The notes under the pieces were generated by a model. It was not told the DNA's origin. It saw only the letters and a list, made by a program, of their open reading frames with translations, and ran no database searches. A stretch of 64,000 nucleotides of DNA, from IMG/VR virus record IMGVR_UViG_3300025678_000001; one strand, 5' to 3'. How positions within the stretch are numbered: position 1 is the first letter of the stretch; the number at the start of each line of letters is the position of its first letter. Positions 6,763 through 56,221 of the stretch are shown piece after piece. A program made the translations under genes and the position numbers. This stretch comes from a virus (Duplodnaviria > Heunggongvirae > Uroviricota > Caudoviricetes).

Positions 6763-6781
6763 GGTTTTTTATAGTTTAAAC

Positions 6782-6832: not shown

Positions 6833-8998
6833 TTAGTTTAGTTTGACCCAGGTAGATCCGTCATAGCCCCACCAGCCTTTTGTAGTAATGGCTCCGGCAC
6901 CAGCCGATGTAGCATATACCAGAAGACCTTCTGCCGGGGTGGCAATGGCTTCGGCCTGGGCTCCCGTCATGCGGGGAGGTAAGAAACCTTTTGTAGTACT
7001 ACTGATCTCCAGAATAGCAGAAGCTCCGGGGGAAGTTGTACCAATACCTATATTGTCTGTACTGGCTTTTGCGTAGAACAGGTTGCTATTGGTTTGACCT
7101 TTGATCCAGAAGTTGACGTTTGAGTTATTTCCAGGATTGACATATATGCCTCCATAAAACTCAAGATGCATGTTTACTAAACCCCCGGATCCAACCATAT
7201 CAAGATTCGAGTTTTCATGTCTCAATATGACAGGATTACCTGTTACATCAATCCCAAAAGTACCACCACCAGTAAGATTCATATACAACCTGAACTTGTT
7301 ATCCAGGGTAAAGTATCCGGTATTTGAAGCATTTGTAAAGTATACACAGTAGGCATTCTGGTCATTTGTAGCCCCGGTCACCTGAAGTCTGGCATTACCA
7401 TAGTCAGTTGTACTACCAATACTCATCTCATCAGAGAAATAAGATTTTCCGATTACCTGAAGCTTATGACCCGTATCTGAGGTACTTCCTATAATAGCAT
7501 TGACACCAGTGTCGTATATGACCGAATTACCAATAGATCCTGCTCCAGTCCACTTGGTAACATAGTTGGTAGTTCCTGAACCACTAATACCTCCGGACGC
7601 AATTGTCCAGGATCTATCTGCACTAAGGTCGAGGGTTGTTCCATTGATCGTGATTGTTCTAGTTGTAGGTACAGCTCCAATTTCTGATAAGATCTGGGCT
7701 GCTGTTCTATACTTTATTACTCCACTATCAGATACAAGGATCTTATCTGTAGTTACTGCAGCAGCAGCTATACTACTTATAGTGAGTGAACCATAGATAT
7801 TATTTGTAGTACCATCCCAACGATATTTGATAGTACCATTTCCATCAGCTAGTACAATGTTGTTAGATACGTTTCCAATCACTACTTCCTGGCCGATGAC
7901 AGTGTTATAAGAACCTGTTGTGATTCCAGTTCCGAAATTACCACCACCAATAATCGTGTTGTTATTACCTTGAGTAATGCCAGCTCCAGCATTTTGACCG
8001 AAAGCTGCATTCTTAGCTCCAGATGTAACATTAGGAAGAGTAGTATATCCAACAGCCGTATTCAGATCACCTGTTGTACGACTGGCTAATACTCCGTCTG
8101 CTCCGATAGCTACTGAGTAGTAATCTTTACCATCAGAGATTTCCATACCCATACCAACCATGATCTTGGTATCAAACTGTATAGAAAACCCATCTTGAGT
8201 GATTGTTCTATTACCAGTTAATACACCATCTGCAGTATAAAAGTTTGGAACACTCCAGGATCTATCAGTAGAAAGATCATAAGCAGTACCGTTTATTGTA
8301 AGAATACGTGCATTTGTTACCGGGGTGTATGTGAGAGCGGTAGTTACATCAGAAGCCCCCAGAGTGATTGCTCCAGTTCTTGTATTGAAAGAACTCACAC
8401 CTGCTGCAATAGTCCATGAACGATCAGCAGAAAGGTCATATGTGGTACCATTGATCGTAAGTGTACGAGAAGTTGGTACCAGGTTCAGTTGAGCTTTGGT
8501 CATGTATTTGAGCTCATACTGTGAACCGTTTAGTTGAAAGACTGCAATCTTATCAGGATCTGTTACTGCGTTATTAATAACAGTTGCAAAAAGACCACCA
8601 CCAGCTACTATATTTCCAAACGTAGAGAGAACTCCTGAAGAGTTTAATGTCATCAGATCTCCGTTGGTTGTAGAAAGTCCATCCGTGTTTATTCCCCACT
8701 TTAACTGTCCTGTACTATGTACATATATTGAGTAGGTAGAATTAGTAAGATTGGTATCTGTAATCCACATGCCAGGAGAACCCGCACGCTTTAAAAGTAC
8801 ATAACCGTTTTCTGCGATCACGTTACCTTTAAGTCGTGTGTTACCATTAACATCTAGTTTATACCCAGAGTCAATAAGTGTTCCTACCAATAGATGCCCA
8901 CTAGAAGGAATAGAAAGACTAGCTGGTAGCGTTACATTACCAGCATCGTCATAACTAACGATGTTAATAAGATTGGATGTCTTTCTTTGGGGGTTCAT
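6833..8998 (-). CDS. tail fibre protein with three internal R(T)LTINGTxYDLSxDRSW repeats
   Basis: 721-aa G/T/S/N-rich ORF; repeat TSRTLTINGTTYDLSADRSWTI occurs three times. Confidence 0.6.
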   Translation of the reverse strand: MNPQRKTSNLINIVSYDDAGNVTLPASLSIPSSGHLLVGTLIDSGYKLDVNGNTRLKGNVIAENGYVLLKRAGSPGMWITDTNLTNSTYSIYVHSTGQLKWGINTDGLSTTNGDLMTLNSSGVLSTFGNIVAGGGLFATVINNAVTDPDKIAVFQLNGSQYELKYMTKAQLNLVPTSRTLTINGTTYDLSADRSWTIAAGVSSFNTRTGAITLGASDVTTALTYTPVTNARILTINGTAYDLSTDRSWSVPNFYTADGVLTGNRTITQDGFSIQFDTKIMVGMGMEISDGKDYYSVAIGADGVLASRTTGDLNTAVGYTTLPNVTSGAKNAAFGQNAGAGITQGNNNTIIGGGNFGTGITTGSYNTVIGQEVVIGNVSNNIVLADGNGTIKYRWDGTTNNIYGSLTISSIAAAAVTTDKILVSDSGVIKYRTAAQILSEIGAVPTTRTITINGTTLDLSADRSWTIASGGISGSGTTNYVTKWTGAGSIGNSVIYDTGVNAIIGSTSDTGHKLQVIGKSYFSDEMSIGSTTDYGNARLQVTGATNDQNAYCVYFTNASNTGYFTLDNKFRLYMNLTGGGTFGIDVTGNPVILRHENSNLDMVGSGGLVNMHLEFYGGIYVNPGNNSNVNFWIKGQTNSNLFYAKASTDNIGIGTTSPGASAILEISSTTKGFLPPRMTGAQAEAIATPAEGLLVYATSAGAGAITTKGWWGYDGSTWVKLN

Positions 8999-9299: not shown

Positions 9300-12200
9300 T
9301 TAATATTCTGTTTCGATATAAATACGGTTAATACCAAGCTGGATCTGGGTAGCTACTGTTAAAGCAGCATTACTAGCCAGAACACCAGCTGTAAGTAAGG
9401 TTGTGTTTGTGGGAAGGTTGGTTGTAGCAGTACCAGAAGCCTCGGTACCAGTTGTGATATCCACAATTCTCCAAGTATATTGTGAACTGTTTGGAGCACA
9501 GTAGATAAATAGATCATATCCTTTTTTGGATGTGATTGTAAAGCCAGTTGAAGCTTTTGTAGCAGCTGTACCTCTTGTAAGGAACGAGATAGCTCCGTTA
9601 TCAGCAGCATCCACACAGAATCCTACAGTATTGTTCAAAGCTGAAGGATCTGCAGATACTACAGTGGTAGCAGAGTGCATGCCAGCAAAGAAACGACCAC
9701 CATTTGTCCATACGTCAAAACCACAACGAGTATAGAAGAAGAAACCACCTTGACCAGCAGCACCACCCCTCATAAACATGGCATCAGTATTTCTTTGACC
9801 AAGTACCTGGTTCGTTGTAGTTACCACATTTGCGTACCTACTTCTCTTTGTGGCAGTATAAACGTTGGTAGTTGTAGGAAGGGCTGACGTAAATGTACCA
9901 GAACCAGCACCAGCTGTACCAATCCACAAACCAGCTGTTGCACCAGTGGTTGTCCACAGTACAATGTTGTTCTGCCATAAAGCAGATTGTAGAGACATGG
10001 CCAGACCAGTATCCCCGAGGATTCTAGCTGTTGCTCTACCAGCAATATACTTAGAGTATTTTACTGTGTTACCAGATGCAGGAACAGAAGGTTCTGTACT
10101 CAGACCTTTGATAAGCATCTGACTATTTGTAGCCAGTAATGATAAGATACCATTTGTGTCATCCCAGGTAAAGTTAGCAGATGCTCCCAGGGTACCGGCA
10201 TTATTATATTGGATCTGGGTATTTGAACCAGCCGGTGAAGCTGTTACAGTAGCCCAAGTATTATCTCCCCTCAGATATGTTGACGCTGAAGGGGTACCTG
10301 TAGCTGAAAGGTTTGAGATACCTACAATGGAGTTAGCCAGAGTTGTAGCAATAGCTGTTGTCCCAGATCCTGTTACAGCTCCGGATAATGTGATTGTTTG
10401 GTTACCTGTGAGATAAGTGTTTGTATCCAGAGCGAACGTACCAGCAGATGTCATCTTCACAAAGGAAGTTGAGACAAAGGACAGACCTGCTAAAGAAGTC
10501 AGGTTTGTGGACAAAGGTTGAGCACCAATAGTGTTATAACTTACTGTAAGAGCACTAGCTCCATTGAAAGTACTACCAGAAGTTCCACCGGTACCACCAT
10601 TGTTGAATGTAATAGCATTTGTTGTTGTACCACCACTACCAGATGGCGCGGCCCATGTTCCATCTGCACGAAGGAAGTTAGAAGTTCCTCCACCAGAAGC
10701 AGGAACCAGACCTTTCAGAGTACTTGTAAAGACATCCAGAAGTGTGGTAGCTTGTGTACCAGTCAATGTTTCCACGTTACCAGTTCCAGCTGTCACCCTA
10801 CCATGGAATGTACCAGTAGCTACCTGGGCCAACATGGCATTGGTTACCTTATTAGCACCAATGGTTGTTGTGATTGCTGTTGTACCAGTACCGGAAATAT
10901 CTCCAGAGAGTGTGATAGATTGGTTGGCTGTCAGATAAGTAGAACTATCCAGGCTACCATCACCTTTTACAAACTGACCAGACGTACCAGAAATATAGCT
11001 TATAACACCGGCTGTGGATTTTACAATACCAGTTCCTGACAAAGGAGCCTGATAGCTAAGAGCAGGAATATCAGTAGCAACCAGTAACCTAAATCCTGGA
11101 GTACCTGCAGAACCATTAGGAGCCGCATATACAAAGTTTGCAGTTTGAGATCCAAATGTGTTGTTTAGATCTGTACCGGTAACAGCTGTGTTACCCGTTA
11201 CGCGACCCTTTGTATCCAGGGTGATCTTTACAAAGTTGGCACCAGTAGATTGAACTACAGTAGCTAAGGTAGTTGTAATAGCGGTTGACCCTGTACCAGA
11301 AACGTCACCAGAAAGAGTGATCGACTGGTTTGCAGTTAGATAGGTTGAGGTATCAAATACCCAGGTATTGGTACCTGTACCAGTGTACTTCAGTAAGCCA
11401 GCACTGGCTCCGAGAGCCGGGAGAGCTACCCCTCTAAGACCTGTAACTGTTATTGCGGGTGTCAGAGATGTAGCACCAGATCCACCAGAAGAAGATACAT
11501 CTCCTGTAGGACTGAATGAGATTGTCTGGTTAGCTGTAAGATAAGTACTCGTGTCTAGAGTCCAGGTATTCAGAGCTGTTTTCTTAGCAAAACCTGTAGT
11601 TCCAGCCAGTGCTGCTATGGCACTAAGATCACCATCAAGCGGTTGATATGTTGTGGCAGCAGTAGCTGAAGTCAGATAAGGACTCAAAGCTGAACTGGTA
11701 ATATATCCAGAGTCATTCGTAAATGAAGATACGTTTGTCGGGGCCCCTGTTAGCTTACTATAGGCCAGGGAAGTAATCCAGGTTGGATCAGCGTACGAAC
11801 CACTTGTCAGAACATCACCAACACTCCAGGAACGGTTGAGAGATAAATCCAGGGTAGTACCGTTAATAGTCAAAGTTCTGGTTGTCTGTACATATCCGGT
11901 AAGGGCTGATGAGGTTATATAACCAGCATCATTTGTAAAACTGGATACGTTTGTGGGTGCTCCAGTCAGTTTACCATAAGCTAATGAAGTGATCCATGCA
12001 GGGTTTGCATAAGATCCAGAAGTATAAACTCCATTTGTTACAGTTCCGGCATTTCCACTAATACTGATGCTCCAGGTACCAGAAGCACCTGTACCGGTCA
12101 GAGAAGGAATATCAGTACCAATAGCCAGACCAAGATTTGTTCTAGCTGCCAGAGCTGTACTTGCACCAGTACCACCATTTACAATACCAAGTTCTCCAGA

Positions 12201-14882
12201 TACAGCTGCTGACTGATTTAAAGCTACCGCATTCCATTCTACCTGTGTACCGGTAGCATTAACCAGAAGTGATTTATAAGCGGCACCAAGAGTAAGTTTA
12301 CCCCAGGTATTTAAGGCAGAACCGTATAACAGATCTCCTACTGCTACGGTACTTAAACCAGTACCACCATGAGTAGGATCTACAATTCCAGATAAAGAAA
12401 ACTCAGTTCCAATAAGTTGTAAAGGAGCCAATGCTGAGTAATCCGGAGATGCACTAAAGAGTGTAAAGTCAATATCACTAACACCAAAGATAATTGGTGT
12501 ACTGATCGTCATTACATAAGACTCACCAGCACCAGGACTACCTTCTTTCAGATAGAAGTAGTCACCCTGGCCAAGTTTTGATGTACTATTTGGTCCGTAT
12601 TTATTAGTATCAGTAGAGCGGGTAAGCACCCAGTTAGTAGAACCAGATCCTACGTTTGTTACGGTATAAATACCGTTTTTGTACATAGCAACATCTTGAT
12701 CAAGTAAAACTCGATCACCCACATTCATTGTAACACCATTGATGACAAGAGCTGCTTGTACACCAGCATTTGTAAGAGTGGCTCCAACACCGGTATTAGC
12801 TTTACCACCTAGAGTATATCCAGATCCATTTGTAAGAGTTGTAATCTCAACACCACCATAAGTGGCAGATACTAGAAATGTATTCGGTGTAGGTACATCA
12901 TGTACAAAGTAGGCAACACCAGTTGTCAGACCATAAGCTGATGTATTGAATGTCACTACATCATCTACAGATAATCCATGGTTTACAGAAGTTGTCAGTG
13001 TTGTACCGCCTGAGATTGCAGTTACTGTAAACGTAGTTCCACCATCAGCATAGGTGGCGTTAACAGGACCATGAAGTTCTACACGAACTGCAGGATGAAT
13101 ATCAATACCAGTTGAGGTAGCATTATCTACATACTCTTTTGTAGTAAGTTGTGTAGCGTAAGTAACTGGGGCTGTAGCATACATAGCACCAGTAGATGAT
13201 ACGTTTCCAGTAATTCTGGCTGAACCAACAACCTGGAGTTTGTTTACCGTATCATCAGTAATAGTATTCAGAAGCAGGTTACCTGTTGCTGCTTTCAAGG
13301 TCATTTTGATATCAGCAGAAGACAGACCACCTGCAAACAGCACAATATCACTACCAGGAGTACCAGTACCTAAGTAGAGCATAGAAGGCTGAGCTCCTGC
13401 CCCACCTCCGGTAAACACATAACCAGAGTTAGCTGGAAAGATTGAATAGGTACTAGAGCTGTAGTTAGAGCTGTTGATACCCATATCAATGAAATAAGAA
13501 TCTACATCTGATGCATCATTATAAGCTACAAAGTCAGCTGAAGCATCTGAACCAGCATGTAGGTTTTGTACATATACCAACTGATAGTTGTTGGTATTTG
13601 ATACAAAACTAGCCATGGTATTGATGTACGGGGTATTACTTGTAACACCAGTACCATATACCTGTAGAGTCTTTGCTATGATGTCAGTAGCTGTAAGATC
13701 GTGTAAACCAAGATCCAGATCAGAAGTTGCCCCACTATAAGGAACGAATCCTGATACAGCAGCTACAGAAAGTGTAAAGTTTGGATAACTACCAGTGATT
13801 GTTACTCCACCTCCATTTGTAAGTGTTACTACCTGATCAGGAGCAGAGTTAGTAATTACACCAGTAGTATTGTTATAGTTAATACCAGTACCAGAAGATA
13901 AACCAGTACGAGCTATATAGTTGTTTGGATTACTTAAAGGATAGTAAGTGGCTGCTGCTGTTACAGAAGTCAGATAACTACCAAGAGCAGAAGGTATGAC
14001 ATAGTCTACCCCAGCTGTGGCGGCACTGATAGCAGTACCATTACCTTTCAGTAAGCCATTGATTGTAGTAGATAAAGTGATGGCTGGTGTAGTTGTAGCA
14101 TTAGCTACAGTTCCTGCAAAACCGTTTGCTGAAACAATAGAAACAGTAGTTACTCCACCTGTAGATACTGATGCCCAGGAAAGAGAAGAGCCATCTGTTG
14201 TCAGGAATTTACCTCCATTACCAGTTTGATCAGGAAGAGTTACTTCCATCAGAAGATCTGAGTAGATTACAATATCTACCACATCACCACTATGAACTGG
14301 ATCAACAAATGTGATACTGTGAGAAGTATTAGAGAACGAAGAGGTATTTATACGAACACCATTGATGAATACATCAAAGTATCCTACAACGAGCGTATGA
14401 GTAGTATTAAAAAGAGTCTGACCTTCAATACCACTGAAACTTTCTGTATAACGAGTAGTTGCGGTACCGGAAATAGCAGCTGTGGATATGTTGGAGATAC
14501 GACCATACTGGTCAACAGTAATAATAGGAACAGCGTTTGTTCCTCCGTAAGTATCTGCAGTTACCCCGGTAGTTGCCAGATCCAGAGTAACATCACCTGT
14601 TCCAGGATCAACGCCAGTACTTAAGATTGAAAGATTAGGTCCAACTGATATCTTACTTACATATGCTACGTCAATAGAAGATCCACTCCAACCAGTACCA
14701 TTCCAGGTAAACAGGTTATTTAGAGTAATATCATAAACAATGAAACCCTTATCACTAAGACCAAGAGTTCCACCAAGAGTGGTTCTATCAGTAGTAGTTA
14801 AAGGGTGAACCCGGGCGTTTAACAGCTTGTTTTTGTCCAGGTCTATGTTGTGTAGATATCTTGTTGTATCTAAGGTAGACAT
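9300..14882 (-). CDS. giant tail fibre or tail-associated protein (1860 aa) with several internal repeat families
   Basis: 5.6-kb ORF; tandem ~50-aa repeats (SGSYA[DN]P[AT]WITSLAY[GS]KLTGAPTNVSSFTND[AS]GYITSSAL), four STYLTANQSITLSGD repeats, and the INGTTLDLS motif shared with the 721-aa fibre. Confidence 0.65.
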   Translation of the reverse strand: MSTLDTTRYLHNIDLDKNKLLNARVHPLTTTDRTTLGGTLGLSDKGFIVYDITLNNLFTWNGTGWSGSSIDVAYVSKISVGPNLSILSTGVDPGTGDVTLDLATTGVTADTYGGTNAVPIITVDQYGRISNISTAAISGTATTRYTESFSGIEGQTLFNTTHTLVVGYFDVFINGVRINTSSFSNTSHSITFVDPVHSGDVVDIVIYSDLLMEVTLPDQTGNGGKFLTTDGSSLSWASVSTGGVTTVSIVSANGFAGTVANATTTPAITLSTTINGLLKGNGTAISAATAGVDYVIPSALGSYLTSVTAAATYYPLSNPNNYIARTGLSSGTGINYNNTTGVITNSAPDQVVTLTNGGGVTITGSYPNFTLSVAAVSGFVPYSGATSDLDLGLHDLTATDIIAKTLQVYGTGVTSNTPYINTMASFVSNTNNYQLVYVQNLHAGSDASADFVAYNDASDVDSYFIDMGINSSNYSSSTYSIFPANSGYVFTGGGAGAQPSMLYLGTGTPGSDIVLFAGGLSSADIKMTLKAATGNLLLNTITDDTVNKLQVVGSARITGNVSSTGAMYATAPVTYATQLTTKEYVDNATSTGIDIHPAVRVELHGPVNATYADGGTTFTVTAISGGTTLTTSVNHGLSVDDVVTFNTSAYGLTTGVAYFVHDVPTPNTFLVSATYGGVEITTLTNGSGYTLGGKANTGVGATLTNAGVQAALVINGVTMNVGDRVLLDQDVAMYKNGIYTVTNVGSGSTNWVLTRSTDTNKYGPNSTSKLGQGDYFYLKEGSPGAGESYVMTISTPIIFGVSDIDFTLFSASPDYSALAPLQLIGTEFSLSGIVDPTHGGTGLSTVAVGDLLYGSALNTWGKLTLGAAYKSLLVNATGTQVEWNAVALNQSAAVSGELGIVNGGTGASTALAARTNLGLAIGTDIPSLTGTGASGTWSISISGNAGTVTNGVYTSGSYANPAWITSLAYGKLTGAPTNVSSFTNDAGYITSSALTGYVQTTRTLTINGTTLDLSLNRSWSVGDVLTSGSYADPTWITSLAYSKLTGAPTNVSSFTNDSGYITSSALSPYLTSATAATTYQPLDGDLSAIAALAGTTGFAKKTALNTWTLDTSTYLTANQTISFSPTGDVSSSGGSGATSLTPAITVTGLRGVALPALGASAGLLKYTGTGTNTWVFDTSTYLTANQSITLSGDVSGTGSTAITTTLATVVQSTGANFVKITLDTKGRVTGNTAVTGTDLNNTFGSQTANFVYAAPNGSAGTPGFRLLVATDIPALSYQAPLSGTGIVKSTAGVISYISGTSGQFVKGDGSLDSSTYLTANQSITLSGDISGTGTTAITTTIGANKVTNAMLAQVATGTFHGRVTAGTGNVETLTGTQATTLLDVFTSTLKGLVPASGGGTSNFLRADGTWAAPSGSGGTTTNAITFNNGGTGGTSGSTFNGASALTVSYNTIGAQPLSTNLTSLAGLSFVSTSFVKMTSAGTFALDTNTYLTGNQTITLSGAVTGSGTTAIATTLANSIVGISNLSATGTPSASTYLRGDNTWATVTASPAGSNTQIQYNNAGTLGASANFTWDDTNGILSLLATNSQMLIKGLSTEPSVPASGNTVKYSKYIAGRATARILGDTGLAMSLQSALWQNNIVLWTTTGATAGLWIGTAGAGSGTFTSALPTTTNVYTATKRSRYANVVTTTNQVLGQRNTDAMFMRGGAAGQGGFFFYTRCGFDVWTNGGRFFAGMHSATTVVSADPSALNNTVGFCVDAADNGAISFLTRGTAATKASTGFTITSKKGYDLFIYCAPNSSQYTWRIVDITTGTEASGTATTNLPTNTTLLTAGVLASNAALTVATQIQLGINRIYIETEY

Positions 14883-33920: not shown

Positions 33921-34048
33921 TAAACAAAACTCAGCAGTAGTAGTTGTCTTTAGAGTGGACTATTTCTCACTGAGGTAAGTAGATTACTAAGGGGTAATAC
34001 TTAGTAAAATTAATCAGTGTCAGCTTATATACAACTGATTCTTATCAG

Positions 34049-34120
34049 TTTCCTCCCCTGGGTACGATCCAGGAACTGCAGGGCCAAAACCTGCCGTGAT
34101 ACCAGTTTCACCAAAAGGAA
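34049..34120 (-). tRNA. tRNA-Gln(UUG)
   Basis: T-arm CCTGG/ATCGTAC/CCAGG, anticodon arm GCAGG-UUUUGGC-CCUGC, acceptor pairs with two GU. Confidence 0.6.
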
Positions 34121-34126
34121 ATAGTG

Positions 34127-34198
34127 GGTGTAAGGACGGTACCGACCCGTCTTCCCCAGGTCCACAACCTGGTGCATCACCTTAATGCTTCAAACACC
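34127..34198 (-). tRNA. tRNA-His(GUG)-like, encoded G-1/C73, two U-U mismatches in the acceptor stem
   Basis: anticodon arm CCAGG-UUGUGGA-CCUGG; T-arm GACGG/GTCGGTA/CCGTC; extra 5-prime G opposite C73. Confidence 0.45.
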
Positions 34199-34203
34199 AT
34201 AAG

Positions 34204-34275
34204 AGCCTTCTACCGGAACCGACCCGGTAAGTCCTGTTTACAAGACAGGCAGTTTTCCAGTTAGCTTAAGAAGGC
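34204..34275 (-). tRNA. tRNA-Thr(UGU)
   Basis: perfect 7-bp acceptor (GCCTTCT/AGAAGGC), T-arm ACCGG/GTCGGTT/CCGGT, anticodon loop CTTGTAA. Confidence 0.65.
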
Positions 34276-34280
34276 CTGTG

Positions 34281-34353
34281 TGGTACAGAGTGGTTACGAT
34301 CCACTTCCCCCGGTTTTTCAGACCGGTGCTTCTACCAAGTTAGCTTCTGCACC
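34281..34353 (-). tRNA. tRNA-Phe(GAA)
   Basis: T-arm AGTGG/ATCGTAA/CCACT, anticodon arm CCGGT-CTGAAAA-ACCGG, acceptor with one GU. Confidence 0.65.
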
Positions 34354-34428
34354 AAGTAGGACTTTGTCAAAGCCGGCCACTCCTGCACAAAGAGGAGACC
34401 AGCTTGATCAGGTGTCCTGAAACCTTTG

Positions 34429-34501
34429 AGGTGGGTGGGAAACTCGAAGCCCCGTATGACTGTTTTGCGGACAGTTGCCTTACCATCTTGGCGAACCCAC
34501 C
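34429..34501 (-). tRNA. tRNA-Cys(GCA)-like (C33, weak T-stem)
   Basis: acceptor GGTGGGT/ACCCACC, D-arm GCC-AAGATGGTAA-GGC, anticodon loop CCGCAAA, T-loop TTCGAGT. Confidence 0.4.
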
Positions 34502-34507
34502 ATGTTG

Positions 34508-34579
34508 TCTAGCTGATCTGGATCGAACAGACGTAATCTTGCTCCCAAAGCAAGTGCCTTACCGCTAGGCTACAGCTAG
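34508..34579 (-). tRNA. tRNA-Pro(UGG)
   Basis: acceptor CTAGCTG/CAGCTAG, D-arm GCC-TAGCGGTAA-GGC, anticodon arm CTTGC-TTTGGGA-GCAAG, T-loop TTCGATC. Confidence 0.7.
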
Positions 34580-34617
34580 AAAAAGAAAACCCCCAAACCG
34601 TTTTACCAGTCTGGGGG
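34578..34617 (-). terminator. rho-independent terminator (minus strand)
   Basis: CCCCCA...TGGGGG hairpin followed on the minus strand by TTTTCTTTTTCT. Confidence 0.5.
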
Positions 34618-34757
34618 TTAGTATTTTGATTTTGTACTTCTTAACTCGTTGCTATGATCACTGTACATACACCAACACAACTACCCCCGCAGACCGGACA
34701 AGGTTGCGTAAACTGGGTAAACTGTGTATGGGTAGTAATCTTCTTCATCTACAATAC

Positions 34758-34789
34758 AAAGATACTACTTTTTGTAGAACTACCAAAAT
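34758..34789 (-). promoter_or_regulatory. minus-strand promoter (-33 TTTTG, N19, -7 TATCTTTG) overlapping the TTGTAGAAC box
   Basis: reverse complement of caaagata (34758-65) and caaaa (34785-89); ~130 nt upstream of the 34578-34617 terminator. Confidence 0.45.
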
Positions 34790-34797
34790 CTTTTTGC

Positions 34798-34870
34798 ACG
34801 GGCCCAGGGAAACGATCCCTGTCCATCCGAGGTTTTGGAGACCTGGTGCATACCATTATGCTGGCCCATG
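34798..34870 (-). tRNA. tRNA-Trp(CCA)-like
   Basis: T-arm CAGGG/ATCGTTT/CCCTG; anticodon loop CTCCAAA with a 27-43 mismatch; acceptor with GU. Confidence 0.45.
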
Positions 34871-34875
34871 TATGT

Positions 34876-34959
34876 GGGAAGTGAGTGAGTCGAACACCCC
34901 GAGTCCGTAGACAGCTGGTTTACAATCAGCCCCGCTACCACTTACGGTATAACTTCCCC
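34876..34959 (-). tRNA. tRNA-Tyr(GUA), class II (long variable arm)
   Basis: acceptor GGGAAGT/ACTTCCC, anticodon loop TTGTAAA, T-arm GGGTG/TTCGACT/CACTC, 84 nt. Confidence 0.55.
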
Positions 34960-35040
34960 TATTTCGCATATCCAGTCAGTAGTCTTTCCGTCAAAAGCTA
35001 TCAACCAGAGTATGCCGTTCATATTAACGATGTACATGCA

Positions 35041-35123
35041 GAGAGCAGAGTAGTCGAAACCCACCCCGGTTAAGGAGCCCACTGTTTAGCAAACAGGTCT
35101 GACCACCTAGTCAGTTTACTCTC
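35041..35123 (-). tRNA. tRNA-Ser(GCU)-like, class II, T-arm poorly formed
   Basis: anticodon arm CCTGT-TTGCTAA-ACAGT, D-arm CTGAC-TAGGTG-GTCAG, acceptor GAGAGTA/TGCTCTC. Confidence 0.4.
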
Positions 35124-35129
35124 TAGATG

Positions 35130-35221
35130 CGGAAGGCAGAGGAACCGACCCCCATGCCCGTGTAAGGGGCAGCCTAGTTTTCAAGACTAGTCGCCACTCC
35201 AATGTAGCTGCATTACCTTCC
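35130..35221 (-). tRNA. tRNA-Ser(UGA), class II
   Basis: acceptor GGAAGGT/GCCTTCC, anticodon arm CTAGT-CTTGAAA-ACTAG, variable-arm hairpin, T-loop GTCGGTT. Confidence 0.6.
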
Positions 35222-35226
35222 ATGTA

Positions 35227-35313
35227 GTACCGGTGGAGGGGGATGATCCCACACGATCCTTTCGGATCACAAGATTTTAAGTCTTGCGTGTCTGCCTATT
35301 TCACCACACCGGC
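35227..35313 (-). tRNA. tRNA-Leu(UAA), class II
   Basis: anticodon arm CAAGA-CTTAAAA-TCTTG, variable-arm hairpin GATCC-GAAA-GGATC, acceptor GCCGGTG/CACCGGT. Confidence 0.55.
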
Positions 35314-35394
35314 AGTTGTCTGGACTCTCACCATAGCAGTCAGGGATTTCAGGTCCCCAGGTGTGCATTCAATTCGTCCCACCTTCTGACATCG

Positions 35395-35477
35395 TACCTC
35401 TGACAGGCCTCGAACCTGCACCCGTTTCCGGACTAGATCCTAAGTCTAGCGTGTCTCCCAAGTTTCACCACAGAGGT
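35395..35477 (-). tRNA. tRNA-Leu(UAG), class II
   Basis: perfect acceptor ACCTCTG/CAGAGGT, T-arm GCAGG/TTCGAGG/CCTGT, anticodon arm CTAGA-CTTAGGA-TCTAG. Confidence 0.65.
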
Positions 35478-35518
35478 ATAAAAACCAAAATCCCGACCAG
35501 GAAAACCTAATCGGGATT
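35478..35518 (-). terminator. rho-independent terminator (minus strand)
   Basis: 8-bp stem AATCCCGA/TCGGGATT followed on the minus strand by TTTGGTTTTTAT. Confidence 0.5.
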
Positions 35519-35673
35519 GGAAACTTTTTCAGTAACTACATACCTCACCCGATTGGTTTATGCAACCAATACAGACTGAGTGAGGATAGAGTAAACTGCT
35601 TCATAAAAATTTGGTGGATGGTCACCCCACTTGTTTTAATCTAAACAAGAAATCATCGGTCGGTTACGTTAAC

Positions 35674-35735
35674 TTCTCAGCTTGAACGCCTGTCGTGTGA
35701 CCTTTCAGCTTTCACGCCTGTTAAGAGGCTTTACC
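35674..35735. repeat. imperfect direct repeat CAGCTT(G/T)(A/C)ACGCCTGT x2, spaced 29 nt
   Basis: cagcttgaacgcctgt and cagctttcacgcctgt inside the short promoter-to-terminator unit. Confidence 0.35.
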
Positions 35736-35748
35736 GACCATCACAATA

Positions 35749-35780
35749 CAAATATACAACTCTTTTGGAGTTCTACAAAA
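35749..35780 (-). promoter_or_regulatory. minus-strand promoter (-33 TTTTG in TTTTGTAGAAC, N19, -7 TATATTTG)
   Basis: reverse complement of caaatata (35749-56) and caaaa (35776-80); transcribes a ~230-nt ORF-free segment ending at the 35478-35518 terminator. Confidence 0.45.
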
Positions 35781-35788
35781 TATTTTTG

Positions 35789-35864
35789 TGGAGACTCTGG
35801 AACTTGAATCCAGCTGATATCCTGCTTGCAAGGCAGGTGTCCACTCCTGGCAGACCCAGTCCCC
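35789..35864 (-). tRNA. tRNA-Ala(UGC)
   Basis: T-arm CTGGA/TTCAAGT/TCCAG, anticodon arm CCTGC-CTTGCAA-GCAGG. Confidence 0.6.
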
Positions 35865-35870
35865 ATGCTG

Positions 35871-35942
35871 TACTCTCGGGTGGTAACGATCCACCTACCT
35901 TCTCCGTATCAGGGAGCTACTCTACCATTGAGCTACGAGAGT
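35871..35942 (-). tRNA. tRNA-Ile(GAU)
   Basis: perfect acceptor ACTCTCG/CGAGAGT, T-arm GGTGG/ATCGTTA/CCACC, anticodon loop CTGATAC. Confidence 0.65.
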
Positions 35943-35947
35943 ATAAG

Positions 35948-36020
35948 TTGATCCGGGTGGGTACGATCCACCGACCTTGACGTTATGAGCGTCCTGCTAC
36001 TACCACTGAGCTACGGATCA
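35948..36020 (-). tRNA. tRNA-Met(CAU)
   Basis: perfect acceptor TGATCCG/CGGATCA, T-arm GGTGG/ATCGTAC/CCACC, anticodon loop CTCATAA. Confidence 0.6.
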
Positions 36021-36025
36021 GTATG

Positions 36026-36099
36026 CGGTCCGTACCGGGATCAAACCGGTCATCTCTGGCGTGACAAGCCAGCGTCTTCATCGTGCAGACCCACGGACC
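36026..36099 (-). tRNA. tRNA-Asp(GUC)
   Basis: perfect acceptor GGTCCGT/ACGGACC, T-arm ACCGG/TTTGATC/CCGGT, anticodon arm CTGGC-TTGTCAC-GCCAG. Confidence 0.7.
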
Positions 36100-36105
36100 A
36101 AATAG

Positions 36106-36180
36106 TACCCCCACCGGAGATCGAATCCGGTTCTTCACCGTGAAAGGGTGGCGTCCTGTACCTTCTAGACGATAGGGGCA
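36106..36180 (-). tRNA. tRNA-Glu(UUC)
   Basis: the sequence GCCCCTATCGTCTAGAAGGTACAGGACGCCACCCTTTCACGGTG...TTCGATC... closely parallels canonical bacterial tRNA-Glu. Confidence 0.65.
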
Positions 36181-36259
36181 AATTGGAGGCTTAGGACTCC
36201 ATCATCCTCCTTGAGATCCCGGCGTCCTTCTACTTTTTATAGTACGGATCTCTTTTACG

Positions 36260-36331
36260 AGCAGCATCTCGGGGTCGATCCGAGTTCTCCGGTTTGGAAG
36301 ACCGGCACATCAGCCCTAATGCTTATGCTGC
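36260..36331 (-). tRNA. tRNA-Gly(UCC)
   Basis: perfect acceptor GCAGCAT/ATGCTGC, T-arm CTCGG/ATCGACC/CCGAG, anticodon arm CCGGT-CTTCCAA-ACCGG. Confidence 0.7.
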
Positions 36332-36445
36332 ATGAAAGAACAGAGCTCCAGGGGAATCTCACCCGTCTGTCCGGAACAGACCTCACTGCCTTTTACTATG
36401 TACGGTATTTACTCGTACACAACAGCTACCTGAAGATGATCTTGG

Positions 36446-36515
36446 TTGCGGGGCCGGGATTTGAACCCGGGAAACACGGCTTATGAGACCGGTCGGCCAC
36501 CTGGCTCCCCACAAT
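36446..36515 (-). tRNA. tRNA-like gene, anticodon arm unresolved
   Basis: canonical T-arm CCGGG/TTCAAAT/CCCGG and acceptor pairing TGTGGGG/CCCCGCA, but the interior is 2 nt short of a standard cloverleaf. Confidence 0.3.
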
Positions 36516-36522
36516 AAAACTG

Positions 36523-36595
36523 CGGACTCTCCGGGGAACGATCCTGGAACCTTCACCTTAACAGGGTGCCGCTCTACCAGTTGAGCTAAGAGTCC
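36523..36595 (-). tRNA. tRNA-Asn(GUU)
   Basis: perfect acceptor GGACTCT/AGAGTCC, D-arm AGCTCAACTGGTAGAGCG, anticodon loop CTGTTAA, T-loop ATCGTTC. Confidence 0.7.
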
Positions 36596-36596
36596 G

Positions 36597-36668
36597 TATA
36601 CTTAGAAGGATTCCAACCTTCACTTTCAGTTTAGAAGACTGACGTGCTAAGCATTACACCATAAGTAC
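36597..36668 (-). tRNA. tRNA-Arg(UCU)
   Basis: T-arm GAAGG/TTGGAAT/CCTTC, anticodon arm TCAGT-CTTCTAA-ACTGA. Confidence 0.65.
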
Positions 36669-36676
36669 ATATCTGG

Positions 36677-36747
36677 AAGACCCGGAGGTAGTCGAAACCC
36701 CATCATCACGTTCGTAGCGTGATATCCTTCCATTGAACGACGGGTCC
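36677..36747 (-). tRNA. tRNA-Arg(ACG)
   Basis: acceptor GGACCCG/CGGGTCT, T-arm GGGGT/TTCGACT/ACCTC, anticodon arm TCACG-CTACGAA-CGTGA. Confidence 0.65.
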
Positions 36748-36802
36748 TTGTTAAGACCGTCTTCGGTAATATGTACTGTAGTGTGTCATGTCTTCTGTCT
36801 GG

Positions 36803-36876
36803 TAGCTCCTATCCGGGTCGAACGGATGCATTCTCGGTATGTAACACCGAAGCTCTACCACCTGAGCTAAGGAGCT
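36803..36876 (-). tRNA. tRNA-Val(UAC)
   Basis: perfect acceptor AGCTCCT/AGGAGCT, D-arm TAGCTCAGGTGGTAGAGCT, T-arm ATCCG/TTCGACC/CGGAT, anticodon loop GTTACAT. Confidence 0.7.
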
Positions 36877-36882
36877 ATTTGA

Positions 36883-36932
36883 AGCTCATTATTGAGCTTG
36901 AATGAGCTGAATATTGAGCTTAATCGGCTCAT
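36883..36932. promoter_or_regulatory. palindromic operator AGCTCA-N4-TGAGCT plus three phased TGAGCT half-sites
   Basis: AGCTCATTATTGAGCT at 36883-98; TGAGCT again at 36903, 36915; GGCTCA at 36927; lies between tRNA-Val and tRNA-Lys. Confidence 0.4.
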
Positions 36933-36940
36933 ATATCTTG

Positions 36941-37012
36941 TTCCCCCGTCCGGTAACGATCCGGACCCCACGGATTAAAAGTCCGTTGCCTACACCTGTT
37001 TGCTACGAGGGA
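36941..37012 (-). tRNA. tRNA-Lys(UUU)
   Basis: T-arm TCCGG/ATCGTTA/CCGGA, anticodon arm ACGGA-CTTTTAA-TCCGT, acceptor with one GU. Confidence 0.65.
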
Positions 37013-47238: not shown

Positions 47239-47970
47239 ATGAAACATTCTAAAGTCGTAGGCCAGATCTACGAAACAACCAATTATGAAATGTTCAAAAA
47301 ACGCAGTGACAACCGTCAGCTGAAAGAACACATCGTAAAAGAAAGAATGGAAAGCATCAAGCAGATTGGCCAACAAGATGCTATCAAGGTTTCTAAAGAC
47401 TTTATGGTAGACGACGGCCAACATCGGTTGGAAGCTTGCAGAAGGCTTCAAAAACCGGTAAAATATACTTTCCAGGAAGAGCCGCTCAGTACTCACGAGC
47501 TGGCCACCTTGCAGACACAATCTTCCCGGTGGAAGGTTGAAGACCACGCTCAATCTTTCCTGTCAAAAGGAATTGAAGACTACAGACTTTATAACCTGTT
47601 TGTAAAACTCTATCCTGAGTTCAACCACAGTGTTGCGTTAGTTCTTCTGACCAATACGATCAGCAGAAACCGTCACACTGAAGAACAATTCAAGATCGGA
47701 ACATTCAAAGTGAAAAGCTATACGAAAGCCGTTAAGCTGGCAGATCAGCTTAGAAAAATAGGTGAGTACTATGAAGGCTATGTTCGTAATGGATTTATCC
47801 AGGCATTTCTGACTTTGGCTGAACATCCGGACTTTGAGTTCAACCGGTTACTCCGGAAGATTCCTAAGCGTAGGAAAGAACTGATGGACTTCTCTAAAGC
47901 AGAGGATTACATCCAAACACTGGAACATATGTACAACTGGAAAGAAACCAAGAAAGTACAGTTTACATAA
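47239..47970 (+). CDS. ParB-like nuclease domain protein
   Basis: DGQHRLEA motif (ParB/Srx DGxHR) in a 243-aa ORF. Confidence 0.5.
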   Translation: MKHSKVVGQIYETTNYEMFKKRSDNRQLKEHIVKERMESIKQIGQQDAIKVSKDFMVDDGQHRLEACRRLQKPVKYTFQEEPLSTHELATLQTQSSRWKVEDHAQSFLSKGIEDYRLYNLFVKLYPEFNHSVALVLLTNTISRNRHTEEQFKIGTFKVKSYTKAVKLADQLRKIGEYYEGYVRNGFIQAFLTLAEHPDFEFNRLLRKIPKRRKELMDFSKAEDYIQTLEHMYNWKETKKVQFT

Positions 47971-48005: not shown

Positions 48006-48227
48006 ATGCGTAAACTAATCTTAGAGATCCTGGTAGCACTGGTAACACTTTGTGTGACTGTTAATGCGGTGTACTACCTGGGAGATATCCTCTCCGGAAA
48101 AATCAACTTCCTCATCATGTTTGTGGTACTGTTTGCTCTCGGAGTTTGTGTCATAGCATCAGTTTACGTTCTGATGAGAGTGGTTAAAACCTATTCTCAA
48201 ACTGTAAAAAAACAAAGTAAGTCATGA
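48006..48227 (+). CDS. small membrane protein, translationally coupled to the SPFH gene
   Basis: 73-aa two-TM ORF; its stop overlaps the next start (ATGA). Confidence 0.45.
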   Translation: MRKLILEILVALVTLCVTVNAVYYLGDILSGKINFLIMFVVLFALGVCVIASVYVLMRVVKTYSQTVKKQSKS

Positions 48228-49210
48228 TTTTCCTCATCACCCTCATCTTGTCACTCGGCCTTTTAGGTCTGATGTTCGGGATCTTCAATTTCAACAACTA
48301 CGTTAAAGTAGTCAAAAAAGAAGTAAACTACGGTAGCAGAACCCAAACTATTGAAGAAGAACAAGTCAACGTTGCTCAGATCATTAAGACAGCAGCCGTT
48401 GTTCTCTTCTGTATCATCGCATCTGCTGTAAATCCTCTTTCCCTGCAGCGTATTGACGCCGGTAATGTGGGTCTTAAGATCGACAAAGTCGGTAACATGA
48501 AAGGTATCCCTACCGCTATCCCGGTAAAGGGTTGGGTATTCTATAATGACTGGACTACAGACATCGTAGAGTATTCTATCCGCCAGGGTCACGTACAGTA
48601 TGAAGCATTCGATGTAACTACCAAAGGTGGTTTCAACATCAAGGTAAACCCGAGCTTCAACTTTGCCCTGAAACCTGAGAAAGCCGCGGACGTCTATATC
48701 AACCTGCTGAAAGGTGGAAGCTTCTCCAGTCTTACTGATAACTGGATCAAGACAGCTACCAACATCGCCATGAATAATGCTACGAATAAGTATACCATTG
48801 ACAGCATCTTCAACAACCGGGAACACTATCAACAGGATATCATCAAAGAGCTCAACAAAGAAATGAGTGCTTACTTTACTGTGTCCCAGATCAATCCTGG
48901 TGTTGTCCCGCCTCCGGAACTGGCTAACGTAATCAAGCAGAAAACTGAAACTATTCAGAAAGCACAACAGGCTGAGCTTGACCGTATTACAGCTGAGAAC
49001 GAAGCTCTTACAAAGATCGCTACGGCTCGTGGTGACTCAGCTCAGGCTGTGATCCAGGCTGCAGGTAGGGCCGAAGCTATCAAGCGTGAACAACAGACTC
49101 TTACACCCTTATACATCGAGTATATCAAAACTCAGAAGTGGAACGGTGATGTACCCAGTACTGTGTTAGGTAACTCCAACGGGTTCATGATCAACCTCAA
49201 TAACAAGTAA
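48224..49210 (+). CDS. SPFH/band-7 (prohibitin/HflK-like) domain protein
   Basis: N-terminal TM, SPFH-like core, C-terminal A/E/Q-rich coiled coil (QKAQQAELDRITAENEALTKIATARGDSAQAVIQAAGRAEAIKREQQ). Confidence 0.6.
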   Translation: MIFLITLILSLGLLGLMFGIFNFNNYVKVVKKEVNYGSRTQTIEEEQVNVAQIIKTAAVVLFCIIASAVNPLSLQRIDAGNVGLKIDKVGNMKGIPTAIPVKGWVFYNDWTTDIVEYSIRQGHVQYEAFDVTTKGGFNIKVNPSFNFALKPEKAADVYINLLKGGSFSSLTDNWIKTATNIAMNNATNKYTIDSIFNNREHYQQDIIKELNKEMSAYFTVSQINPGVVPPPELANVIKQKTETIQKAQQAELDRITAENEALTKIATARGDSAQAVIQAAGRAEAIKREQQTLTPLYIEYIKTQKWNGDVPSTVLGNSNGFMINLNNK

Positions 49211-50013: not shown

Positions 50014-50086
50014 CAGGTGTACTCAGGGAGTAGCTCAGATAGGAGAGCATCCGGGCGACCCCCGGAAGGTCGGTGGTGCAAGTCCA
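50014..50086 (+). ncRNA. degenerate tRNA-like element
   Basis: canonical D-arm TAGCTCAGATAGGAGAGCA and T-stem GGTGG/CCACC, acceptor 6 of 7 pairs, but anticodon loop GCGACCC (C33) and T-loop TGCAAGT are non-canonical. Confidence 0.3.
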
Positions 50087-50113
50087 CCCTTCCTAACTAA
50101 ACCAAAGAAACCT

Positions 50114-50914
50114 ATGAGTTACGCCATTAAACTTTTATTCTTTTTAGGTAGTTGTATTCTTGCATTTGTAGCCGGTAGGCTTACAAGCAGTCTGTCTTAC
50201 CACTGGAGTCAAGTGGATGGGCCGAATCAGGCCGTTATAGTTTCACCCAATGACAGTACCACACAAGTCAACGGTTTGGTACAGGGTGTCTATCATTTTG
50301 AGTTAGCAGTTACCGACCCTCAAGGAGCTACAGGACGGGATACCATGATGGTTACCGTACTTCCTGGAGTTCTTCCTATCAAACTGGTTTACTTCAAAGC
50401 GTACCCGCTGGCTGATGTAAACATGATCAAGTGGAAAACATCTGAAGAGATAAACATAAAAGAGTTTATCCTGGAATCCTCTACAGACGGTGTTCATTTT
50501 TACGGTCTCTATCATACGTTTGCTATCGGAGCTACACCAACCTCTCCTTCTGAGTATGACTATGAACATAAGTTCCCAGGAAGAGAGCAGTATTACAGAC
50601 TTAAGTCTATTGAGACATCTGGTACTTATACATACAGTGATGTTGTAAAAGTAACCAGATCTATTTCGACATCTATTTGGTCAAACAACCCTGTTACATC
50701 GACTCTTAATGTTACCATAAACGTAGATAATGCTACTACAGCTAACTTCTACATTTATGATGCTACCGGAAGAAGAATGGCATTCTATACGTACAATCTA
50801 AGTCCTGGTAAGAACAGTTTCAGTTATCATACTGGTCAGTATGCTTCTGGTCTGTATATCATTAAAGTTGACGTAGGAGGTATTATCTCAACCAAAAAAT
50901 TCGTCAAACAATGA
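50114..50914 (+). CDS. secreted protein with Ig/PKD-like domain and a Type IX secretion system C-terminal sorting domain
   Basis: signal peptide MSYAIKLLFFLGSCILAFVAG; C-terminus ...NSFSYHTGQYASGLYIIKVDVGGIISTKKFVKQ matches the Por/T9SS CTD pattern; the ORF-track start at 50003 is rejected because it lies within a tRNA-like element. Confidence 0.65.
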   Translation: MSYAIKLLFFLGSCILAFVAGRLTSSLSYHWSQVDGPNQAVIVSPNDSTTQVNGLVQGVYHFELAVTDPQGATGRDTMMVTVLPGVLPIKLVYFKAYPLADVNMIKWKTSEEINIKEFILESSTDGVHFYGLYHTFAIGATPTSPSEYDYEHKFPGREQYYRLKSIETSGTYTYSDVVKVTRSISTSIWSNNPVTSTLNVTINVDNATTANFYIYDATGRRMAFYTYNLSPGKNSFSYHTGQYASGLYIIKVDVGGIISTKKFVKQ

Positions 50915-51174
50915 ACCCTCATGCTTTAATAACCTTTATCGTTTGTATAGGAGGTTTTCTTTGGCTTGTTACATCCAGTACTATCGTTGTTCTATGCAAG
51001 CCACAGCTTCCCAAGCTTTGGTGGTATAAAAACTGGTTACTTATTGTACAGGTACTCTGTGCTTTTATACTACTTCTGATGGGACTTCAGAAAGCTTCTC
51101 AAGATGTTGGATTCAAAGAAGACAAACCTCAATACGAACAAATCAATGAACCTTTATACAGATTAAAACAGTAA
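50911..51174 (+). CDS. small membrane protein
   Basis: 87-aa ORF with two TM helices. Confidence 0.4.
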   Translation: MNPHALITFIVCIGGFLWLVTSSTIVVLCKPQLPKLWWYKNWLLIVQVLCAFILLLMGLQKASQDVGFKEDKPQYEQINEPLYRLKQ

Positions 51175-51186: not shown

Positions 51187-51585
51187 ATGAAAAAGCTCTT
51201 CTTTATCCTTTGTCTGACAGTAGGATCTCTTATGGCAAACGCCCAACACGTTACTGTTGAACCCCACGTTGTAGTGGAACCGCATGTAACCCCTGTTGAA
51301 CACGTTACTCCGGTCACAGAACATGCTGTACCGGTAGAACATTTCACGCCCAGTCATCCATATTCAGCATCCGAAGAATACCACCCGGTATATAATGGTG
51401 GTGTCTGGTTTGCCCTGATCCATAACCACCAGACCGGTAATACCGATACTGTAAAGGCATCCTCTAAGAATGAACTGGATAAGATGATCCAGGATAAAAC
51501 GGTAGATGAAGATGAAGGACGTACCGGAGCAATGCTCTTGGTACTGGTTATTCTTTTATTTGTTCTTGGTCTGTTCTTTTTATAA
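51187..51585 (+). CDS. secreted repeat protein with C-terminal membrane anchor
   Basis: signal peptide MKKLFFILCLTVGSLMANAQ, HVTVEPHVVVEPHVTPVEHVTPVTEHAVPVEH repeats, C-terminal TM. Confidence 0.5.
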   Translation: MKKLFFILCLTVGSLMANAQHVTVEPHVVVEPHVTPVEHVTPVTEHAVPVEHFTPSHPYSASEEYHPVYNGGVWFALIHNHQTGNTDTVKASSKNELDKMIQDKTVDEDEGRTGAMLLVLVILLFVLGLFFL

Positions 51586-54689: not shown

Positions 54690-54810
54690 GGGCTTATTAG
54701 TTCAGTGGCAGAACACCGGGTCCGATGAGGCGGCTTTTATTAAGGTTATTGCAACCCCAAAAGAAAACCGAAACCCCGGGAGGTCACCAGTTCAAATCTG
54801 GTATAAGCCC
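54690..54810 (+). tRNA. tRNA-like gene with a ~47-nt structured insertion replacing the anticodon loop
   Basis: G(-1)+GGCTTAT acceptor pairing with ATAAGCC+C73, D-arm TA-GTTC-AGTGGCA-GAAC, T-arm ACCAG-TTCAAAT-CTGGT, anticodon stem CCGGG/CCCGG flanking 54 nt containing its own hairpin. Confidence 0.45.
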
Positions 54811-55539: not shown

Positions 55540-56195
55540 GGGCCCGTCTGGTTTAGACAGCAGAGTGAGTGGTAACTACACATGTGGACAAAGTAAGAAC
55601 GTCCTAAAATACTTACAAAACAATAAACGCTATGACTAAGTCTGAGCGTGTAGCAGAAGGTGAAGCTATCCTGGCTTCTATCTTCGTTGATGAGGCTGTA
55701 GCAGCCTGATCCTACGGGGGATCTATCCCTGGCAACAGAAAATAGAACTGAAGTCTTATATGAGCATACAGAACTAAACGGGACATATGCCGTAAAGTAA
55801 TCCGTGTATAAGACGTAGAGTGGCTCCCTTAATAGTCTAGGCTGACCTAGAGCATTCTAACTGAAGCATGGTATACAGGGGGTGAAGCCGTGCAACCCAG
55901 CTATGGGTTACCAGAATGATACAGTTACAGATGAGCGTAGTATGTGAAAACATTCAAATAAGTATCTGTTATAAAAAGTATAGTGACTGAATGTTTGGTA
56001 GTAATAGCATGTTTTCCTGGTTATGTCAAAACTAGGTGGTGGAGTAGGCGGTCTTGATTGGACGCCCCCAAACTACGGTGCAGATGAAGTGACGCAGTCT
56101 TTTAGACTTGATCCAAAGTAATCAGTACTAAACATGTAATACGTTGTAGTTATTGACTTCTTTGTTGGACACGAGTTCGATTCTCGTCGGGTCCA
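55540..56195 (+). ncRNA. ssrA: candidate phage-encoded tmRNA (ssrA-like), unusually long (~650 nt)
   Basis: 5-prime GGGCCCG-UCUGGUUUAGAC parallels E. coli tmRNA 5-prime GGGGCUG-AUUCUGGAUUCGAC; 3-prime GGAC-ACGAG-UUCGAUU-CUCGU-CGGGUCC-A parallels GGAC-GCGGG-UUCAACU-CCCGC-CAGCUCC-A; the 5-prime and 3-prime 7-mers pair (one GU); internal frame ...ASIFVDEAVAA followed by UGA at 55707; consensus promoter upstream and rho-independent terminator downstream; no ORF of 60 aa or more. Confidence 0.45.
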
Positions 56196-56221
56196 CTCTC
56201 TCAAAGCTAAGCAATCGTTAG

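Follow-up and report, generated by a model that had tools for sequence, protein, structure and literature searches.

A phage of probable Chitinophagaceae hosts encodes a minimal protein ending in a type IX secretion system sorting domain

What does a phage do with a protein that ends in a sorting signal for a bacterial secretion system? [quoted passage not shown] The open reading frame call and the sequence place this gene at 50114..50914, stop codon included, with 266 codons from the ATG at 50114 to the stop codon at 50912-50914. Mechanical calling of the longest open reading frame gives a GTG at 50003 as start, but the frame would then traverse a tRNA-like element at 50024-50096, and we therefore regard this GTG as an unlikely true start and the ATG at 50114 as the sensible one. 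The C-terminal residues of the 266-aa protein are ...SGLYIIKVDVGGIISTKKFVKQ, and the C-terminal string quoted in the earlier note was found at exactly this end. From the N-terminus to the C-terminus, the protein consists of a hydrophobic segment, a remnant of a PKD domain, an FnIII-like domain and a type A CTD. Neither Pfam and NCBIfam nor the AlphaFold2 model revealed a catalytic or other recognisable effector domain, and the protein thus gives no direct clue to its function; PHROGs holds no family for it. The AlphaFold2 model, computed from 81 homologues, had a mean pLDDT of 82, with residues 90-266 modelled confidently and residues 22-55 poorly, and a Foldseek search with this model matched tandem FnIII/Ig-like proteins.

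The window is phage DNA, and the gene is therefore phage-encoded, as had been stated before: in addition to tail proteins and an exonuclease, the structural module on the - strand at 0.1-33 kb comprises a portal protein (phrog_6547, E 4e-93), a large terminase (E 3e-62) and a major head protein (E 5e-32). Since 20 kb of window sequence found no match by Megablast among 50,697 phage records, the phage is without a close sequenced relative. Nine further metagenome contigs, the longest of ~136 kb, encode an identical protein (P0001), and a word-indexed search with the 266-aa protein returned only the identical protein and two CTD-only matches. The CTD gene is located far from the structural module and on the opposite strand, ~8 kb inside a block of + strand genes (42-64 kb) that are small, non-structural and for the most part unannotated. 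Its GC3 of 0.353, compared to a window median of 0.45, is compatible with a foreign origin and is at best a weak sign of recent transfer. Around the gene lies a small cluster of predicted envelope-targeted proteins, all encoded on the + strand, namely an SPFH/Band-7 membrane protein with N-terminal transmembrane (TM) segments two genes upstream (48224-49210; PF01145, E 2e-17; phrog_200), an 87-aa protein with two TM segments whose ATG overlaps the stop codon of the CTD gene (50911-51174), and a 132-aa protein in which a signal peptide is combined with a C-terminal TM segment (51187-51585). The latter, for which no family match was obtained, has a textbook Bacteroidota signal peptide, MKKLFFILCLTVGSLMANAQ, and short repeats rich in His, Val and Pro, HVTVEPHVVVEPHVTPVEHVTPVTEH. 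A conserved partner gene was considered and rejected, as the downstream two-TM reading frame has a counterpart only at locus L007, with no similarity in sequence, and the neighbours at L199, L200 and L201 are unrelated. Scans for the Bacteroidetes -7 motif TAnnTTTG, for sigma-70 promoters and for terminators gave no more matches than expected by chance and none in the upstream spacer, and the predicted fold of this 288-nt spacer was ordinary (z -0.35).

The C-terminal domain (residues 192-266; 50687..50911, + strand) was assigned with two curated models and the AlphaFold2 structure. The NCBIfam model TIGR04183, 'T9SS type A sorting domain', matched residues 192-266 with 40.5 bits against a cut-off of 23 (E 2e-10), extending to the last of the 266 residues, and the Pfam model Por_Secre_tail (PF18962) matched residues 192-264 with 35.6 bits against a cut-off of 27 (E 1.1e-8). 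The Por/T9SS CTD claimed in the earlier note is thus confirmed above both curated cut-offs and far beyond chance, and the profile search that the note had suggested as a check, with the lack of a significant hit as the outcome speaking against it, gave significant matches. In the AlphaFold2 model, the domain has six strands (197-204, 208-215, 221-229, 232-239, 246-254 and 257-265) at pLDDT values of ~90 or more, and is predicted to be a compact beta-sandwich. A profile built from the middle domain and CTD of the family described below matched the solved T9SS CTD chains 8glk_D (E 2.7e-8) and 8glj_D as well as mirolase and RgpB. Such domains are generally recognised by a PxP-type motif near the start, D-x-x-G-R/K, G-x-Y and a K-rich terminal strand. 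By these general definitions, the whole set is found in the 266-aa protein as NNPV (190-193), DATGRR (216-221), GLYIIKV (246-252) and KKFVKQ (261-266). The residues G219, G246 and Y248 are invariant across a 15-sequence alignment, and K262 joins them across the six closest sequences. Searches of the 64-kb window with phmmer and custom HMMs found no second gene for a CTD or for the middle domain.

The Ig/PKD-like segment noted before was also recovered, in the form of a truncated K319L-like PKD domain at residues 25-84 (50186..50365, + strand). Pfam model PF22352 matched residues 25-82 with 51.7 bits compared to a gathering score of 27 (E 8.9e-14), and a search of PDB sequences with the 266-aa protein found the PKD domains of KIAA0319L (E 2e-8). 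As the match to PF22352 covers only positions 27-84 of its 84, the domain is not complete and lacks its N-terminal part. Because it is truncated and, in addition, poorly modelled (AlphaFold2 pLDDT below 50 for residues 22-55), this part of the 'passenger' may be without a proper fold. The following region, residues 85-185 (50366..50668, + strand), carries a YYRLK motif and matched no Pfam or NCBIfam model; its predicted fold is a seven-strand beta-sandwich superimposable on FnIII domains, modelled with confidence like the CTD. An exhaustive HMMER search with residues 83-266 collected 48,168 protein clusters at E<=1e-3, of which 4,077 had E<=1e-10. In the best 150 of the 48,168 clusters, the 184-residue unit was mostly matched in one stretch and at the extreme C-terminus of proteins of 185 to 3,616 residues, and the named proteins among these best 150 were T9SS type A sorting-domain proteins of Chitinophagaceae, Ferruginibacter, Ginsengibacter and Saprospiraceae. 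The FnIII-like domain is thus a common, unnamed 'pre-CTD' spacer of Bacteroidota cargo proteins.

In order to place the protein among bacterial relatives, we turned to a scan of one genome per species. Of its best 77 loci, ~70 carried names of Chitinophagaceae/Chitinophagales, six were from unclassified Bacteroidota/Bacteroidetes and one was labelled Bordetella. Bacteroidota is a phylum known for the T9SS, and the assignment of the host to this phylum can now be narrowed, with the host probably being a member of the Chitinophagaceae/Chitinophagales; we infer from this assignment that the host cell possesses a T9SS. The resemblance to the C-termini of host T9SS cargo, also pointed out in the earlier note, turned out to extend well beyond the CTD: the last ~240 residues of Chitinophagaceae T9SS type A cargo enzymes align in one stretch with phage residues 28-266 at 28-31% identity, with the PKD, FnIII-like and CTD modules in identical order and the type A CTD at the very end. 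Three of these cargo proteins (L122, L124 and L125) consist of a signal peptide, an esterase-like alpha/beta-hydrolase, two PKD domains, the middle domain and the CTD, and a fourth (L123) has a beta-helix head in front of the PKD, middle and CTD modules. The phage-encoded protein, in contrast, has no enzyme or adhesin head, has a single, truncated PKD domain and starts with a different N-terminal hydrophobic segment that lacks the ...AQ motif. The closest relatives anywhere of the phage PKD domain, at 55-64% identity, are individual repeats of giant Chitinophagaceae T9SS cargo proteins (1100-2200 aa) with 10-16 K319L-like PKD repeats plus a CTD; the phage protein differs from them in having one partial repeat and in having the FnIII-like domain between PKD and CTD. 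Since the same block of PKD, FnIII-like domain and CTD forms the C-terminus of host cargo enzymes, the phage protein can be read as a "headless" cargo, composed of stalk and address tag. Because the host C-termini align to residues 28-266 in one piece, the gene looks like a captured 3' portion of a cargo gene of Chitinophagaceae that was cut within a PKD repeat.

The full architecture was also found in six other proteins of 252-276 aa (P0005, P0013, P0014, P0016, P0100 and P0153). The four of them that were compared directly by BLASTP were 32-41% identical to the window protein, and all six passed the TIGR04183 cut-off of 23 with 25-37 bits. Mean pairwise identity within the family is 46% for the PKD remnant, 38% for the FnIII-like domain and 26% for the CTD, making the PKD remnant the most conserved region; the truncation of this remnant goes even further in four family members. 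The 72-kb contig of P0014, with packed co-directional small genes, an SNF2 helicase, DUF5131, a methyltransferase and a reverse transcriptase, is clearly phage-like in its gene content. The contigs of the other family members are short, and in one of them, the P0005 gene adjoins an RNA-ligase-like gene. As the CTD gene alone is common to the family contigs and the window, with differing neighbours, it appears to behave as a mobile accessory gene. A search of IMG/VR with a three-sequence alignment gave nothing, and a metagenome scan was dominated by bacterial PKD repeats and yielded no useful new relatives with the full architecture.

The N-terminal segment (residues 1-21; 50114..50176, + strand), identified by composition, hydropathy and AlphaFold2, is a candidate Sec signal peptide or signal anchor. 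Its sequence, MSYAIKLLFFLGSCILAFVAGR, has a short, weakly positive n-region with K6, followed by 15 residues without any charged residue, Asn or Gln; the Kyte-Doolittle mean over 19 residues is ~2.0, and AlphaFold2 models residues 2-20 as a helix, all of which is compatible with either assignment. The canonical Bacteroidota cleavage motif ...A/S-Q is absent from the N-termini of the 266-aa protein and its six relatives, whereas host cargo proteins with the same module have ...AQ or ...SQ cleavage sites. Across the family, the character of the segment is conserved and not more, in that the stretch without charged residues, Asn or Gln measures 15-28 residues in 7/7 members. A lipoprotein signal processed by SPase II was considered as well, in view of the lipobox-like LGSC at residues 11-14; it was rejected, as Cys14 is not conserved in the family, only ~5 hydrophobic residues precede it and further hydrophobic residues come after it.

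By analogy to the host cargo proteins, export through Sec and then through the T9SS is the best-supported mechanism, to which we assign a probability of roughly 0.7. The gene would be a phage accessory ('moron'-type) gene derived from the captured 3' end of a Chitinophagaceae T9SS cargo gene, with a hydrophobic export signal placed ahead of it. The N-terminal hydrophobic segment would direct the protein into Sec for insertion or export, the translocon of the host T9SS would then recognise the type A CTD in the periplasm, and the protein would be transported over the outer membrane. Type A cargo proteins generally lose their CTD and are either attached to the cell surface or released. Likewise, the CTD of the phage protein would be cut off and the remainder would be bound to the surface of the infected cell or set free. 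Since the protein is made of small beta-sandwich modules of the binding or spacer kind and has no enzyme head, its effect would probably be non-catalytic, such as a remodelling of the surface coat of the infected cell in which T9SS-dependent proteins serving as phage receptors are masked or displaced, with superinfection exclusion or protection of progeny as the outcome. We infer the passage through Sec and the T9SS, the location at the cell surface and the role during infection, and the role in surface remodelling or superinfection exclusion is a guess that we hold at a much lower probability than the export route.

The N-terminus also leaves room for a second, unlikely reading, in which the segment is an uncleaved signal anchor that tethers the protein to the inner membrane and the CTD, exposed to the periplasm, acts as a decoy that titrates or jams components of the T9SS. 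The headless CTD would be a bait that fills the translocon or the shuttle machinery or saturates the sortase and the anchor sites, export of surface adhesins and enzymes of the host would stop, the cell surface would lose the T9SS-dependent adhesins that phages use as receptors, and both superinfection and re-adsorption of progeny would be blocked, so that no progeny would be lost on debris. In line with this reading are the features of the segment described above, i.e. the 15-28-residue stretch and the missing Bacteroidota SPase I motif in all seven members, compared to the ...AQ/...SQ of host cargo, as well as the single helix modelled at residues 2-20 and the lack of a passenger worth delivering. 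Furthermore, resistance to tailed phages in flavobacteria typically maps to T9SS and gliding genes, and phage resistance is gained there upon loss of the T9SS (PMC12781566), which is equally in line with the export reading. On the other hand, a hydrophobicity test did not discriminate between signal peptide and anchor, in that 66% of ordinary cargo signal peptides also pass the TM-like threshold and the N-termini of the family are inseparable from them, and V-A-G|R at residues 19-22 of the 266-aa protein is acceptable as a -3/-1 cleavage site. The tethered decoy is conjecture throughout, and we know of no T9SS inhibitor of this kind.

Even less probable is that the protein decorates the virion, where the Ig-like, FnIII-like and CTD-like sandwiches would serve for adhesion on the capsid or tail, comparable to Hoc, with the CTD being a mere reuse of the fold. 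The position of the gene deep in the non-structural block, on the opposite strand from and distant to the 0.1-33 kb module, the conserved N-terminal hydrophobic export segment and the lack of a PHROG match all speak against it, and it is the sequence signature of the CTD, beyond its fold, that exceeds the curated cut-off in 7/7 members. That the gene is a functionless hitch-hiker, i.e. a recently captured fragment of host cargo drifting to loss, as the low GC3, the truncated PKD domain and the missing enzyme head might indicate, is the most improbable of the readings: at least five other contigs, each with its own gene neighbourhood, carry intact reading frames of the same architecture, 252-276 aa long and only 32-41% identical, with invariant core residues common to the family and the CTD signature kept. 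Taken together, the retained CTD signature, the shared invariant core residues and the intactness of the reading frames at this level of divergence indicate that an exported protein with a CTD tag has long been under purifying selection, and they speak against a gene fragment in decay.

Parts of this architecture occur in other phages. A 329-aa protein of LR756504.1, a 636-kb uncultured phage, whose reading frame is identical on the 288-kb IMG/VR contig 3300012582_000005, begins with a classic signal peptide and shares with the window protein the FnIII-like domain and a C-terminal beta-sandwich; it matches residues 44-266 of the window protein at 32-34% identity. The 329-aa protein differs in having a Cys-rich N-terminal domain in place of the PKD domain, and TIGR04183 did not match its C-terminal domain at E<=1. 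On locus L002 (Ga0137358_10000002, 288 kb), which is related to LR756504.1, genes for a NusA-like protein, DHFR, dCMP deaminase and guanylate kinase lie near the related gene. A motif scan of IMG/VR located the FnIII-like domain at 36 loci, and each of the 11 sequences inspected from these loci started with a classic signal peptide. A custom HMM recognised the type A CTD at eight of the 36 loci, five of which were independent of the training set. Next to the IMG/VR genes with both middle domain and CTD lie, among others, genes for a phage baseplate protein, a tail fibre, a DNA polymerase, a helicase and NAMPT. At the other 28 of the 36 loci (L011-L013, L015-L019, L021-L033, L035, L036 and L038-L043), the same HMM found no CTD after the FnIII-like YYRLKQVD domain, and most of them have 39-51 residues after this domain compared to the 75 aa of a full CTD. 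Examples of these short tails, ...VKYYNLLGIQEHELLPYKFYIEVINGVGRKILYTKQ and ...KYINLIGQEVNSDTKGFIFEVYEDGTMKKIIR, resemble a CTD minus its first strands; NCBIfam gave no match for the two short-tail proteins examined. These tails could either be degenerate or serve as a short sorting signal that has not been described.

Those points of the earlier note that are open to a computational check were borne out. The novelty implied by the note has to be reduced, as phage-encoded proteins with a T9SS CTD were previously described (PMC6949934, PMC7468147). T9SS sorting-domain reading frames were reported in crAss-like and gut phage contigs by de Jonge et al. in 2019 (PMC6949934), and Bellas et al. described in 2020 three T9SS type A-tagged genes in a 'Cryophage' and proposed that the host T9SS is hijacked, possibly for superinfection exclusion (PMC7468147). 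Like the protein studied here, these proteins are encoded by phages and terminate in a T9SS type A sorting domain. The cargo of the Cryophage differs by its enzyme or PA14 domains (endoglucanase, GH39), compared to the headless PKD remnant plus FnIII-like domain of the window protein, and the gut-phage proteins differ by their BACON repeats, whereas the window protein is minimal and belongs to a different, probably Chitinophagaceae-associated phage. The concept of phage T9SS cargo is thus already published, and no experimental test of it was found in that literature. On present evidence, the CTD gene is an expected variation on this reported theme.

Nevertheless, the gene adds a clean, minimal example to a small set of phage-encoded T9SS-tagged proteins and provides a sequence-based assignment of an uncultured, tRNA-rich large phage to a probable host family, the Chitinophagaceae. 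Several IMG/VR contigs, the 636-kb phage and the small family of the same architecture indicate that genes of the T9SS-tagged type recur in large Bacteroidota phages. With no enzyme attached, the protein poses in isolated form the question of how a phage benefits from merely passing something through or into the host T9SS, a question that can be approached by experiment in Flavobacterium or Chitinophaga. Should the gene block or retarget the T9SS, it would be a useful tool and would represent a new mechanism of superinfection exclusion; if the protein acted as a tethered decoy, the same-architecture family (250-276 aa) would comprise the first type IX secretion system inhibitors to be encoded by phages.

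Several other elements were observed in the window. The tRNA-like element at 50024-50096 (+ strand), which ends 17 nt upstream of the ATG of the CTD gene, scored 42.8 bits with the Rfam tRNA model in a local scan, compared to a gathering score of 29, and was missed by ARAGORN and by the whole-window gathering scan. It has an odd anticodon loop, GCGACCC, with C for the expected U33, a mismatched first acceptor pair and no encoded CCA. Dense tRNA arrays are typical of large phages; the array in the window, at 34048-37012 (- strand), contains 17 tRNAs according to ARAGORN, and up to 19 Rfam tRNA matches, for many amino acids, were obtained window-wide. One further match at 54691-54810 (+ strand; 46.2 bits over 120 nt), which ARAGORN did not call, has 53 nt in place of a 6-nt stretch of the model at the anticodon loop and may represent a tRNA containing an intron. 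A tmRNA at 55540-56198 (+ strand; Rfam RF00023, 60.7 bits), also not called by ARAGORN, spans 659 nt compared to 374 model positions, owing to two large insertions (189 and 227 nt compared to 44 and 101 in the model), and its apparent tag frame, (A)MTKSERVAEGEAILASIFVDEAVAA-stop, is unusually long. A ParB-like partition protein is encoded at 47239-47970 (+ strand; phrog_12305, E 3e-33) and may point to a plasmid-like or otherwise partitioned stage, or may have a nuclease or regulatory role. Finally, the phage genome is compositionally mosaic: a reading frame of 1860 aa at 9300-14882 (- strand) and the tail-region genes at 1634-8998 (- strand) have GC3 values of 0.26-0.38, compared to 0.51-0.57 for the head, portal and terminase genes.
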